From the NCBI GenBank assembly GCA_020279385.1, contig GCA_020279385.1_4762.2: a stretch of 64,000 nucleotides of DNA; one strand, 5' to 3'. The DNA is from a phage. Under the pieces are notes generated by a model, which was not told the DNA's origin, did not search any database, and saw only the letters and a program-made list of their open reading frames with translations. A program made the translations under genes and the position numbers. This document shows, in pieces, positions 29,890 through 51,347 of the stretch (its first letter is position 1; each line of letters begins with the position of its first letter).

Positions 29890-29918
29890 TTGACAGGGGA
29901 TCGGTGATCCCCTATAAT
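29890..29918 (+). promoter_or_regulatory. PeSL-type early promoter
   Basis: TTGACA - GGGGATCGGTGATCCCC - TATAAT. Confidence 0.55.
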
Positions 29919-35525: not shown

Positions 35526-35554
35526 TTGACAGGGGATCGGTGATCCCCTATAAT
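35526..35554 (+). promoter_or_regulatory. PeSL-type early promoter
   Basis: TTGACA - GGGGATCGGTGATCCCC - TATAAT; same spacer as 29890..29918. Confidence 0.55.
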
Positions 35555-47526: not shown

Positions 47527-49044
47527 TTAGATCTCGATTGTTTTCGTGACATATTCGAATCGATCGGTGTTGTAAATTTTTATTCTTTCAAGGGCATGTT
47601 TAAGAGCATAATTAAGGTGGCTAAACTGTTTCTTAGCATTCTTGCTCTTTGTCTTAACCGCCAAATGATCGATAAGATCCCAGACCGTTGCAATGTCTTT
47701 CGAACCATGTTTACGCAATGCACGACCGATACTCTGACGAACGATAGTTGATTCCTTCACTGGATGACCGAAAATAACATGATGCAAATTCTTAATTGAA
47801 ACACCAGTAGAGAATACACCATAAGACGCAACACAAATGATCCCGGTGTCACCCTCCGCCATTTTCTTAAATTCATCACGTTCTTCTGTCTTAACTCCAC
47901 CGTCAATATAATAAACCTTGTCATGTACCTTCTGTAACGCGTCATACATAAGTTTTCCGTGCTTAGTATTGCGGAACATCAGGAATACGTTTTCGCCCTT
48001 CTTAGCGAGTTTTAGCGCCAAATTACAAGCAAACTTATTTCGTCGTGGGTTAGACGTAATATACTTGATCTCTTCCGCATATTCTCTCCCCTTAACCGCG
48101 CTACATTCCTCATCGGTATAACGAAGGAAAAGACAGTTAATTTTCAGTTTTGTCACCTGCCCTTCTTCCATCAGGCGGTCAATACTCACGATCTTAGAAA
48201 TATCACCGAAAAGCCCGACATACTGCATCATGTTAGCTTTCCCATCACGAGGGGAACCAGTCATGCCGATCTTAAATTGGCAATGATCCATATCAGTAAC
48301 GATGTTTAGCAGGTTTTTAGCAGTGGCCTTGTGACATTCATCAACAATTACCATCCCAAATTGCTGGAACCACTCACGAGGTTGTTTACATGCAGATTGC
48401 CACGTACTAACAACGATCAGGCGATCACCTACGTGTTTACTAGTACCGCTCATGATAGTATGAATTGCTTCATAAGGAAACTGGCGATAATCAACAAAGT
48501 CATCACGCATTTGCAGCACTAGCGACGTGGTAGGAACGATGATCAGCACTTTCCCTTCGTAGTTCTCTAAGTACCAGCGAGACAACATACAAGCAATCGC
48601 AGATTTACCAGCGGACGTAGGCAAAACTAACATACGGCGTTTATGATGAATACCTTCAAAGACAGCCTTTGATTGATACCAATGCGGGGTGATCCTGTTA
48701 GCACCGGAATATAATTCTAAGTCATTACACCATTTTGTAATTTCTTCTTCTGTAACTTGTTCTTTTTCGAATAAGCGAGGATCTACCCATACGCTATAGC
48801 CCATATTTTTAGCGAAGATTCCCACGGTTTTAGTTAGGCCGATTGGCAGCTTTCCGTTGTAATCTAAAAGACGAATACGCCCATCCCATCCACCATACTT
48901 AAATCTTTTTTGAAACCGCGCTCTCTCGACTTCAAAACTAAAATAATCTCGCATTTCTAATAAAATTGAATCGCTACATTCAATTTGAACATGGGAGTAG
49001 TTCAGAAAGTGAATTTTAATATCTTGCATAGCGAATAGCCTCAC
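47527..49044 (-). CDS. uvsW: UvsW SF2 helicase
   Basis: 505 aa; Walker A LPTSAGKS, DECH box (VIVDECHKAT), helicase C-terminal motifs; synteny. Confidence 0.9.
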   Translation of the reverse strand: MRLFAMQDIKIHFLNYSHVQIECSDSILLEMRDYFSFEVERARFQKRFKYGGWDGRIRLLDYNGKLPIGLTKTVGIFAKNMGYSVWVDPRLFEKEQVTEEEITKWCNDLELYSGANRITPHWYQSKAVFEGIHHKRRMLVLPTSAGKSAIACMLSRWYLENYEGKVLIIVPTTSLVLQMRDDFVDYRQFPYEAIHTIMSGTSKHVGDRLIVVSTWQSACKQPREWFQQFGMVIVDECHKATAKNLLNIVTDMDHCQFKIGMTGSPRDGKANMMQYVGLFGDISKIVSIDRLMEEGQVTKLKINCLFLRYTDEECSAVKGREYAEEIKYITSNPRRNKFACNLALKLAKKGENVFLMFRNTKHGKLMYDALQKVHDKVYYIDGGVKTEERDEFKKMAEGDTGIICVASYGVFSTGVSIKNLHHVIFGHPVKESTIVRQSIGRALRKHGSKDIATVWDLIDHLAVKTKSKNAKKQFSHLNYALKHALERIKIYNTDRFEYVTKTIEI

Positions 49045-49099
49045 TCAATAAATACAGTATACAAATATTTATACAAACACCCCCAATCAGGAGAATAAC

Positions 49100-49825
49100 A
49101 TGTTTGATAAAGAATATTTCGAAGAACTCCGCGCTATTGCGGCGTCCGACGACAAAGAAGCACAGAAAACAGCTAAAACAGAATTAGCTGACTACGCAAA
49201 ACAATTTGATATTAAGGTCAAAAAGACGCTCTCGTTAGAGAACATGATCGAGTTCGTAGAAACCGAATTAACTAAACTGGCTTCCGAAATGGAAGAAGAA
49301 ACTCCGGCAGAAGGAACCAGTATTAACGATCTTATTCTGGCAGCAGACACCGCAGATGATAAAGTGGTATTCGACGAAGTTGATCCGTCTCTGGTTGAAG
49401 CAATGAAAGAACCTGAGATCGTCATTGAAGAAACAAAAGAAGAATCTCCAGCAGTTGAACCAGTGGTCGAAGAAGTTAAGTCAGATGTTGAAGAAGCACC
49501 GGAAGTTAAAGTGGAATCTCCGGCAGCCAACATTTTCTCTGACGAAGCAGAACATCGTTCTCCAGCACATAACACTGATTCATTTTGCGATCTTACTGGC
49601 TTCCGTCCGACCATTTGCTTGATCGGTGGCGGTCGTGGTTACTACTCCTGCCCGTGGTGGATTTTCGACTGGATCGTTAATACTCCAGATTGGAAGAAGT
49701 ATCCAGAGCGTTTCCCGCACGCGTATGTACACGACACCCTCAAGTCACTGATCTATTATATCAAACGCGATGGGTCTGTCAAGGTGAGAGAGACTAAACA
49801 TAGCCAATTCCACACACTCAAGTAA
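49100..49825 (+). CDS. Acidic capsid-associated protein at the inh position (Inh-like; C-terminus with Hoc-like WW motif)
   Basis: 241 aa, E-rich low-complexity middle; C-terminal YYSCPWWIFDWI resembles Hoc IYIGWWVFDEI; between uvsW and hoc where T4 has inh. Confidence 0.4.
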   Translation: MFDKEYFEELRAIAASDDKEAQKTAKTELADYAKQFDIKVKKTLSLENMIEFVETELTKLASEMEEETPAEGTSINDLILAADTADDKVVFDEVDPSLVEAMKEPEIVIEETKEESPAVEPVVEEVKSDVEEAPEVKVESPAANIFSDEAEHRSPAHNTDSFCDLTGFRPTICLIGGGRGYYSCPWWIFDWIVNTPDWKKYPERFPHAYVHDTLKSLIYYIKRDGSVKVRETKHSQFHTLK

Positions 49826-49921
49826 TTTTTGGGTGATAAAAGTTGTGAAATATTTGTTATAATTTTAATTGTAGTTCCGTTATGCAATTAAAAAGAGGAT
49901 ACTACATGTCTAACAAAATCA

Positions 49922-50119
49922 ATGTATTACATCAAACAGAACAAATACCCAGACGAGATCGATACTATTTCGTCCTCGTTGCATCACTATTCTAATACTC
50001 ATGTATTGGAATCTCGCAATGGTTATCTGGTTGATGGCAATCAACTATTTCAATTAATTAAATTCGGATTTTCTATGGGAGTGGCTTTATATGGCTTTCA
50101 CAGTATCAATACAATCTAA
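49922..50119 (+). other. Short ORF with Hoc C-terminus-like ESRNGY motif (possible remnant)
   Basis: 65-aa ORF containing VLESRNGYLVDGNQL, similar to Hoc C-terminal CMESRNGFMYHSKEL; overlaps hoc start; coding status uncertain. Confidence 0.25.
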
Positions 50120-51305
50120 CAAAAGATGTTTTCTTGCTGGTGATGGTTTCACCTTAACGGCGACTGTAGCGGGTGACGAACCATCACCCAGCAATTTGAC
50201 ATATACATGGACAAAAGACGGCAAACCGCATGAAAATAAGACAGCTACGCTAACTGTAGAAGGCGCAACAAGTGAAAATGCGGGTAGCTATAAAGTAACG
50301 GTACAAGATACCGATACGACGGAATCAGTAGAATCTGAAGTTTTCCTCATGGAAGAAGCGGAATTAATCGTAAATATCACCGAACCGCCGCATTTCTACG
50401 TATCATCACAAAAAGACGTAGAATTACATGCAACAGTAAAATTTTCGGGTGGGAAGACTCCAGCAGACAACTATGAACTACATTATAGTTGGAGTAAGGG
50501 CGAAGAAGTTATAGACACAAAACAGAATATTACAATCCAAAAATTTACAGCAGATAAAAACGGCGTGTATACTGTAAAAGTGTGGGGCGAGTCGGAAAAT
50601 TCAGCCGATAGCGCATCGACTAAAATCATGCTGGCAACAATGAACGTAGATCAGGATGTGGTGGAATCAAAGACCGTGGCACTAGGTAATGAGATCTTAC
50701 TTAATTATGTTGTGTCAGAGGACATTGTAGGCGATTCTAGCGGTATGCCTGAATTGACGATCAAACATAACTGGTATTTGCAGCGCGAAGGGCAACTGTC
50801 ACCGACTCTGATCGGTAATGAGGTCGGCGAAGCACTGGAAGGATTTTCTATCACTCCAGACGGTCATCTGTTCAAAGAGAGTGCTACTTACGATGACACA
50901 GCCAAATTCTGGTGTGTTGCTAAACTATATCAACAGATTGAAGATGAACCAGTAGAAGTTGCAACAAGTACAAGTAGAAAATGTTCAATGGAAGTTGTTA
51001 AAATGTTTCGTTACGTACACCCGATCCCGTGGCGCAAAACTTCATTTATCTACATTGGATGGTGGGTATTTGACGAGATTGTTAAATTCAATGAGGCTGG
51101 GTTAGAGTGGCGTGACCGAGAAGTTTATTCTACCAGCAAGTACGCCAAAGATCTGGAGACAATCGCGGCAGCGGAAGAAAAATATAGTGATTGCACTTGC
51201 ATGGAATCTCGCAATGGTTTCATGTATCATTCCAAAGAGTTACATAAACTGGACCGAGATACGTTAGAGCGAGTTCTACGCATTCGTGAAACGCATCCTG
51301 CTTAA
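50091..51305 (+). CDS. hoc: Hoc outer capsid decoration protein (Ig-like domains)
   Basis: 404 aa; Ig-like repeats (TYTWTKDGKP...SYKVTV); C-terminal YVHPIPWRK...GWWVFDEI...ESRNGF matches the T4 Hoc capsid-binding region as recalled. Confidence 0.85.
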   Translation: MAFTVSIQSNKRCFLAGDGFTLTATVAGDEPSPSNLTYTWTKDGKPHENKTATLTVEGATSENAGSYKVTVQDTDTTESVESEVFLMEEAELIVNITEPPHFYVSSQKDVELHATVKFSGGKTPADNYELHYSWSKGEEVIDTKQNITIQKFTADKNGVYTVKVWGESENSADSASTKIMLATMNVDQDVVESKTVALGNEILLNYVVSEDIVGDSSGMPELTIKHNWYLQREGQLSPTLIGNEVGEALEGFSITPDGHLFKESATYDDTAKFWCVAKLYQQIEDEPVEVATSTSRKCSMEVVKMFRYVHPIPWRKTSFIYIGWWVFDEIVKFNEAGLEWRDREVYSTSKYAKDLETIAAAEEKYSDCTCMESRNGFMYHSKELHKLDRDTLERVLRIRETHPA

Positions 51306-51314
51306 TGAAATCTA

Positions 51315-51347
51315 TCAGCCATCCTTCGGGGTGGCTTTTTTGTTTTT
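51315..51347 (+). terminator. Rho-independent terminator after hoc
   Basis: AGCCATCCTTCGGGGTGGCT hairpin followed by TTTTTTGTTTTT. Confidence 0.7.

Follow-up and report, generated by a model that had tools for sequence, protein, structure and literature searches.

The inh-hoc region of a Krischvirus genome: a probable diverged Hoc anchor domain in Inh and the relic of a second hoc gene

We analysed a stretch of 64,000 nucleotides (nt) of phage DNA (NCBI GenBank assembly GCA_020279385.1, contig GCA_020279385.1_4762.2; hereafter the window), focusing on the genes inh and hoc and on the spacer between them. The window represents a Krischvirus (RB49-like, T4-like) genome with the local order uvsW on the minus strand, inh, a 265-bp spacer, hoc and a terminator (Table 1), and the 2.4 kb around inh and hoc are 97–98% identical to Krischvirus coliphages including Whisky, E26, JSE, Phi1 and GEC-3S. 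The order uvsW-inh-hoc is common to the window, T4 and RB69, and inh lies next to hoc in T4, RB69, Acinetobacter phage PhaR5, Edwardsiella phage PEi26 and Krischvirus. Here we describe a likely relationship between the C-terminal domain of Inh and the capsid-binding domain of Hoc, and the remains of a second hoc gene (hoc2) in the spacer.

The 241-amino-acid (aa) product of inh matches PHROG 1051 over residues 1–241 (E=7e-77), is 43% identical to T4 Inh over its full length, and is 100% identical to a protein carrying precomputed matches to PF26097 (Phage_Inh_N) and PF26098 (Phage_Inh_C); Inh proteins occur in 1,423 phage records. The initial annotation had called this protein acidic, and it is, with an isoelectric point (pI) of 4.59 and 52 D+E against 28 K+R. 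An AlphaFold2 model built from 81 diverse Inh sequences divides it into three parts, namely a helical N-terminal domain, an acidic linker and a C-terminal domain, the last predicted with a predicted local distance difference test (pLDDT) score of 94–98. T4 Inh (inh/lip/hoc.1; PHROG 1051) is built of the same three parts and likewise lies between uvsW and hoc; the window's linker is 15 residues longer, and a C-terminal loop that reads RETRNS in T4 reads RETKHS here. The linker is also the region that varies most in length among phages, and imperfect 25–28-nt direct repeats (GAAG..TCTCCRGCAG) at 49282–49567 encode its E/P-rich sequence, which is consistent with linker growth by slippage. Our Pfam scan returned only noise for Inh, with no immunoglobulin (Ig) or PKD match (the Pfam set apparently lacked PF26097 and PF26098), and a search against PDB sequences gave no match. 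In this analysis the function of Inh is known only from the wording of its annotation, 'minor head protein / inhibitor of prohead protease gp21', and the protein is unmentioned in the recent T4 head reviews that we searched. In the structure database BFVD, proteins named 'Inh N-terminal domain-containing' also occur outside the classical T4 group, in Aeromonas phiAS5, Pseudoalteromonas H101 and Escherichia FV3 and V18; they match part of the Inh model (49–60 aligned columns in three of the four), so the helical N-domain seems to travel independently of the C-domain.

The neighbouring hoc gene encodes a Hoc protein. In PDB sequence searches its product matches 3shs, which covers residues 1–304 of RB49 Hoc, at E=7e-184, and its residues 297–384 align with T4 Hoc (5vf3/8t1x) at E=2.7e-14; the Pfam scan placed Ig/PKD domains in the protein and listed no family on its C-domain. 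In T4 Hoc, the capsid-binding domain comprises the C-terminal residues 281–376 (PDB 8t1x chain X, 5vf3 chain Z), has an acidic pI of 5.1, and contacts the centre of the gp23* capsomer through an ESRNG loop between the last two strands, mutations of which alter binding (Fokine et al. 2023, PMC10385173). The window's Hoc carries IYIGWWVFDEI at residues 320–330, CMESRNGFMYHSKEL at 370–384 and, within the latter, ESRNG at 372–376.

The initial annotation had placed the motif YYSCPWWIFDWI at the very end of the 241-aa protein and likened it to IYIGWWVFDEI of Hoc. All the peptides that it quoted are present at the coordinates given. The placement within the protein was wrong, as 49 residues follow the motif, and the likeness held up, the two segments being paired by hhalign and, in BLASTP, by an eight-residue match around the WW. 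We compared an alignment of 92 Inh C-domains (Inh_C), most of them representatives of clusters at 50% identity drawn from an exhaustive search with phmmer, together with Inh of T4, RB69, RB43 and Acinetobacter, Aeromonas and Edwardsiella phages, with an alignment of 52 Hoc C-termini (Hoc_C). The two profiles align in hhalign over 72 columns covering the domain, with a probability of 95.8% and E=8e-9, so that the relationship extends well past the short motif; the real score was 51.9, whereas 100 column-shuffled alignments reached at most 17.7 and the reversed one 10. Reciprocal profile-to-sequence searches with hmmsearch were positive at 20–33 bits. The collinear pairs in the alignment, Inh before Hoc, are PWWIxDWI/GWWVxDEI, pDWK/dWK and IRETRNS/VQESRNG. 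The last pair sets the window's VRETKHS (residues 229–235; family consensus RETRNS) opposite the capsid-contact loop of Hoc, and among 81 Inh proteins its columns R230, E231, N234 and S235 each reach a conservation of 90% or more. A pairing of an Inh 'RDG' with the Hoc 'RNG' was rejected, since hhalign sets ESRNG opposite ETRNS/ETKHS, eight residues further on.

Structure comparison pointed to the same partner. When the Inh C-domain model was searched with Foldseek against 350,542 PDB chains, the T4 Hoc C-domain (8t1x chain X) ranked first with a probability of 0.90, and it was the best PDB match of the model by each of two structure-comparison methods. The authors of the Hoc structure found its fold in no other PDB domain (PMC10385173), which makes the match a specific one. 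Among ranks 8–27 in BFVD, directly below the Inh family, at least nine proteins are called Hoc, outer-capsid or capsid, the remaining entries being mostly nameless in the table. The predicted fold of Inh_C, a beta-sheet with helices packed against it, is that of the Hoc anchor, and it shares with that anchor the WW(V/I)xD start of helix 1, the DWK motif, a C-terminal position in the protein and a gene in the same neighbourhood; the loop before the last strand, E-(S/T)-R-N-(G/S), is related in the two but not identical. The two also differ in several respects: Inh_C is only about 18–25% identical to Hoc_C and is detected by profile or structure comparison alone, it lacks the conserved YVHPLPxR motif of the N-terminal strand, and its partners in the protein are an acidic linker and a helical domain, where those of Hoc_C are Ig-like domains.

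A number of observations speak against such a relationship. Pairwise, the window's Inh and Hoc give a borderline BLASTP match confined to WWIFDWIV/WWVFDEIV (E=0.05), and T4 Inh against T4 Hoc gives E=1.3. A phmmer search of 1.84 billion representative proteins with Inh_C retrieved no Hoc among its 88 matches, all of them Inh-like in length (118–279 aa) with the match at the C-terminus; profiles were needed to see the link. The Foldseek PDB E-value of 0.53 is by itself not significant; the window's loop, ETKHS, departs at two positions from the ETRNS consensus and differs also from ESRNG; and Inh_C is basic (pI 9.3) whereas T4 Hoc_C is acidic. In the older T4 literature, Inh is called a protease inhibitor and is processed by gp21, which, if correct, would give it an internal location unlike that of Hoc.

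Together with the fact that Phage_Inh_C is a separate Pfam family and none is listed on the Hoc C-domain, the failure of pairwise BLAST and phmmer would fit a resemblance that arose by chance or by convergence on a Trp-rich motif, with Inh_C unrelated to the Hoc anchor. We consider this improbable: the profile-profile E-value stands clear of its shuffled and reversed controls, the T4 Hoc C-domain comes top in the whole PDB by two methods, and the secondary-structure order and the WW, DWK and E-x-R-N-x motifs are collinear in products of adjacent genes. From the profiles and the predicted model we conclude that the Inh C-domain (approximately residues 161–241) is most probably a remote homologue, a diverged paralogue, of the Hoc capsid-binding domain. 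The Hoc-like C-domain is an old trait of the whole Inh family, T4 included, and not a lineage-specific one. Inh is nevertheless not a Hoc despite the common anchor domain, because it has no Ig-like domains and its N-terminus is helical. We did not find the relationship stated in the searchable literature, probably because pairwise comparison fails even for the T4 pair; it may stand in papers or database entries beyond our reach.

The spacer between inh and hoc holds a different piece of Hoc. A 65-aa open reading frame (ORF) containing VLESRNGYLVDGNQL had been noted there as matching Hoc, and BLASTP extends this match to 39 residues (13 identities, 33%; E=8e-8); the fragment also matches the Hoc-like PHROG 1149 (E=3.6e-6) and gave nothing in the Pfam scan. 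When 50,697 phage records were searched by tblastn with the 65-aa ORF as query, 59 matched, all of them Krischvirus. In 53 of these the match is 95–98% identical and falls, as in the window, within the spacer that separates inh from hoc. The remaining six (JK32, SSG23, SFHK24, Brandy, UPWr_E1 and G2248) have a match of 75–82% aa identity that forms the 3' end of a gene of 2541–2544 nt between inh and hoc. The intact second gene that the initial annotation suggested seeking in relatives thus exists in six sister Krischviruses. The JK32 annotation lists this gene, hoc2, as a second 'head outer capsid protein', and its 846-aa product combines several Ig-like domains with a full Hoc C-terminal domain. 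When the entire protein served as query, full-length hoc2 was found in only those six of the 50,697 records; one 170-kb metagenomic contig also has it.

Both ends of Hoc2 are recognisable in the window. Its C-terminus, ending in KYPDEIETIAASLHHYSNTHVLESRNGYLVDGTQLF, matches the fragment, and its N-terminus, MSDKINILHQT.GPVY.SVGH..., matches the small ORF at 49906 (beginning MSNKINVLHQTE) and ORF168.1 of Phi1; the two termini likewise match PHROGs 19377 (Phi1 ORF168.1) and 32100, both of 'unknown function' and built from relic ORFs. By blastn, window positions 49700–49937 run into the 5' end of hoc2 and positions 49935–50299 cover its 3' end and hoc. Relative to the intact alleles 2309–2312 nt are missing, a length that leaves a remainder of 2 on division by 3, and this large deletion left 40 N-terminal and 36 C-terminal hoc2 codons joined out of frame. 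Phi1-type genomes (12 records) retain the 40+36-codon relic minus nine further nt, and in the window, RB49, JSE and 38 further records an additional 75 bp are gone between CAGAA repeats. The hoc2 stop codon TAA is CAA in the window (50051–50053). In JK32, SSG23, G2248 and UPWr_E1 a GC hairpin followed by Ts stands after hoc2 and is annotated as a terminator in G2248; the corresponding site of the window has lost it. No intact hoc2 reading frame with Ig-like repeats and a complete capsid-binding domain is present in the window. Against the UPWr_E1 allele the deletion junction showed no obvious microhomology; an alternative derivation from the JK32 allele, by an in-frame deletion at GAyTTT microhomology followed by a frameshift, was rejected, as the UPWr_E1 junction falls after GCAGAA and the length is not a multiple of three.

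The intact hoc2 alleles (including L004:2580-5120 of JK32, L005, L006, L007 and the metagenomic L008:6790-9333) are 60–94% identical to one another in aa sequence, while the flanking inh is 90–99% identical, and this difference indicates fast diversification of the long Hoc fibre. In blastn comparisons the relic is closest to the UPWr_E1 allele in its 5' part and to the JK32/SSG23 allele in its 3' part, a pattern suggestive of recombination among hoc2 alleles in the past.

The sequence identifies the ESRNGY fragment as what remains of hoc2, now a pseudogene, and not of Inh or of the adjacent hoc. A derivation from the neighbour, by partial duplication of the hoc 3' end or as a gene-conversion tract, was suggested by an exact 18-nt repeat, TGGAATCTCGCAATGGTT, present in the fragment (50007–50024) and in hoc (51202–51219), in which one position has CGC as in hoc where most intact hoc2 alleles have CGT. 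Outside these 18 nt, however, the fragment is 33% identical to the Hoc protein against 75–82% to the Hoc2 C-terminus, the upstream 12–36 codons match the N-terminus of Hoc2 and not that of Hoc, and the metagenomic allele L008 likewise has CGC. We attribute the repeat to conservation of the ESRNG codons; copying from hoc is largely refuted and very unlikely as the source of the fragment, although a small gene-conversion patch at the ESRNG codons may have occurred.

The reverse history, in which six phages gained hoc2 by recent insertion and the window shows the empty target site, would agree with the presence of the gene in only 6 of the 59 Krischvirus records. The direction assumed here, loss and not gain, is read from the anatomy of the site rather than from a rooted phylogeny, a point that counts against our interpretation. 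The supposedly empty site, however, contains 12–37 codons of the hoc2 5' end with their ribosome-binding site and 36 codons of the 3' end in an out-of-frame join, with a mutated stop codon and an eroded terminator not expected from an insertion. The divergence among hoc2 alleles moreover indicates long residence in the genus, and of all the alternatives considered we hold an insertion to be the least probable.

Could the small ORFs left at the site be genes of their own, for example by encoding a minimal peptide that binds the capsid or by regulating the translation of hoc? They are 95–98% conserved in about 50 Krischvirus genomes, are annotated as coding sequences in several records and have their own PHROGs; the 29-aa ORF retains the old hoc2 Shine-Dalgarno sequence and ATG, and the 65-aa ORF covers the hoc ribosome-binding site, overlapping the hoc start by 29 nt. 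This conservation is nonetheless no higher than that of the flanking DNA, given 97–98% identity over the 2.4-kb region, and the lengths of the relic ORF differ between lineages (29 versus 54 aa) owing to the 75-bp indel. Of the roughly 100 residues of the domain, the 65-aa ORF preserves only the final 36, about one third, and then reads through the former stop and terminator. Its ESRNGY frame has no Shine-Dalgarno sequence and, in Phi1-type genomes, is closed by a stop with no upstream ATG, which makes the ORF an accident of the second deletion. A functional small gene is accordingly highly improbable in our estimation, and, as far as the sequence can tell, the 29-aa and 65-aa ORFs are by-products and not genes. 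ORF168.1 of Phi1 was described as an ORFan unique to that phage (Arbiol et al. 2010, PMC2839356). The window's 29-aa ORF occupies the same locus as a version shorter by 75 bp, and what was called an ORFan appears here as the 5' stump of hoc2.

The initial annotation had offered a duplicated, diverged Hoc-type module or a decayed remnant as an account of the Inh motif and the fragment together. Both ideas survive, each for a different object: the C-domain of Inh is the probable diverged module and the fragment the probable remnant of hoc2. The notion of a single broken module does not, because Inh already carries a segment corresponding to the ESRNG loop (RETKHS; RETRNS in T4), so that no single domain was split between Inh and the fragment. 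The fragment is an unmistakable piece of a Hoc capsid-binding domain, to all appearances one that came from hoc2. We put the probability of the joint reading, with the Inh C-domain an ancient paralogue of the Hoc anchor and the spacer a dead hoc2 relic, at roughly 85%.

No terminator-like site was found on the plus strand of the inh-hoc interval, and after the loss of the hoc2 terminator inh and hoc share a stretch free of terminators that runs to 51317–51336; the two genes would then be co-transcribed. No copy of the T4 late promoter TATAAATA was found on the plus strand upstream of the relic or of hoc; the sole copy nearby, at 49066–49073, lies on the minus strand, oriented toward uvsW. Also on the minus strand, within the 3'-terminal part of inh, positions 49755–49782 form a perfect extended -10 sigma-70 consensus (TTGACA, a 16-nt spacer, TG-n-TATAAT). 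It lies in the codons of the conserved Inh_C helix SLIYYIKRDGSV, is directed toward uvsW, and is kept in all eight Krischvirus loci examined, the most divergent included; such a perfect-consensus promoter is absent from the T4, RB69, RB43, Acinetobacter, Aeromonas and Edwardsiella phage stretches that we examined. Its probable role is that of an early uvsW promoter from which an antisense transcript of inh is also made. The whole window contains ten perfect TTGACA-N15-18-TATAAT promoters where 0.08 are expected by chance, nine of them on the plus strand, and these are presumably the phage's early promoters. Two of the ten, at 29890–29918 and 35526–35554, are identical, and their spacer holds a GC-rich stem-loop (TTGACAGGGGATCGGTGATCCCCTATAAT), which gives them the look of the 'promoter-early stem-loop' (PeSL) cassettes, mobile units known from Phi1 and RB49 (PMC2839356).

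Table 1. Features of the inh-hoc region and perfect-consensus promoters of the window, with evidence or remarks.
Feature	Position	Strand	Evidence or remarks
inh, 241 aa, ortholog of T4 Inh	49100-49825	+	PHROG 1051, T4 Inh identity, synteny
Inh N-terminal helical domain, residues 1-66	49100-49297	+	AlphaFold2 pLDDT 89-97; helices 4-15, 19-34, 46-66
Inh acidic linker, residues 67-160, pI 4.05, probably flexible	49298-49579	+	AlphaFold2 pLDDT 54-74; composition
Inh C-terminal domain, residues 161-241, pI 9.3	49580-49822	+	Probable remote homologue of the Hoc capsid-binding domain
YYSCPWWIFDWI, Inh residues 181-192, counterpart of Hoc IYIGWWVFDEI	49640-49675	+	BLASTP, hhalign
RETKHS, Inh residues 230-235, opposite the Hoc (Q)ESRNG capsid-contact loop	49787-49804	+	hhalign
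Old hoc2 Shine-Dalgarno sequence, AAGAGGA	49893-49899	+	
5' relic of hoc2, start codon and 12 codons (MSNKINVLHQTE)	49906-49941	+	Matches the start of intact hoc2 (UPWr_E1, JK32, others)
29-aa relic ORF	49906-49995	+	JSE EpJSE_00174; 54 aa in Phi1 (ORF168.1)
65-aa ORF containing VLESRNGYLVDGNQL	49922-50119	+	Spans 3' relic, decayed terminator and hoc start; PHROG 32100
CAGAA at which both deletion junctions coincide (~2.31 kb, later 75 bp)	49937-49941		Alignment with Phi1, GEC-3S and JSE; junction mapping
3' relic of hoc2, last 36 codons (..KYPDEIDTISSSLHHYSNTHVLESRNGYLVDGNQLF), +1 frame	49942-50053	+	75-82% aa identity to intact Hoc2 C-termini
Decayed hoc2 terminator site	50054-50078	+	Both hairpin arms gone in the window
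hoc, 404 aa	50091-51305	+	WW motif 51048-51080; ESRNG 51204-51218
Intrinsic terminator closing the inh-relic-hoc unit	51317-51336	+	
uvsW	47527-49044	-	
Perfect sigma-70 promoters	7354, 7911, 11951, 13176, 29293, 29890, 35526, 51353, 51925	+	
Perfect sigma-70 promoter	49782	-	

How the locus reached this state can be outlined as follows. An ancestor of RB49, Phi1, JSE and the window phage would have lost about 2.31 kb of hoc2 in a single out-of-frame deletion, and the remainder would then have decayed by the 9-nt loss, by the 75-bp loss in the window's lineage, by the TAA to CAA change and by loss of the terminator hairpin. On a longer time scale, the fact that inh and hoc are neighbours across T4-like phages leads us to infer that the anchor module most likely spread by tandem duplication. 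Other re-uses of the anchor are on record: phages Muldoon and PG7 have two Hoc-like proteins or re-used capsid-binding domains, which in PG7 is a lipase fusion, and these cases were found by BLAST (PMC10385173). The six Krischviruses with hoc2 resemble them in having a tandem Hoc pair, one long and one short; in the window the second hoc is dead. Inh may be compared with the PG7 lipase fusion as a further anchor on a non-Ig partner, with a module far more diverged than in the published cases.

By analogy with Hoc, which sits at the centres of gp23* hexamers, the Inh C-domain may dock onto the lattice of the major capsid protein and so tether the N-terminal part of Inh to the shell. Capsid binding by Inh through its Hoc-like C-domain would follow from that comparison. 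A further step, which we offer tentatively and regard as rather doubtful, would make Inh an unrecognised capsid-docking protein with a Hoc-type anchor at a Hoc-like gp23 site, whose acidic arm and helical head modulate prohead maturation. Inh might then be on the prohead before Hoc can bind, or compete with Hoc. The cleavage motif of the T4 protease gp21 is (L/I)-x-E, and the Inh loop (I/V)-R-E|T-R-N-S, which resembles it, could double as a protease pseudo-substrate; this would explain the old label of 'protease inhibitor'.

The hoc2 relic is an ordinary deletion pseudogene, and the link between Inh and Hoc is a modest new lead. The relic calls for a correction of annotation, as Phi1 ORFan168.1, JSE EpJSE_00174 and PHROGs 19377 and 32100 are evidently pieces of dead hoc2. 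Some Krischviruses would have two different Hoc fibres and RB49-type phages would have lost the long one, a natural experiment on Hoc function, for example in mucus or surface adherence. On the Inh side, the Hoc anchor module appears to have been re-used far beyond the range that BLAST detects; compared with the known re-uses, Inh_C would have diverged much further and be far more widely distributed. It suggests a second natural scaffold for capsid display, and a common Hoc-type anchor provides a testable hypothesis for where Inh is located and how it acts in nearly all T4-like phages.

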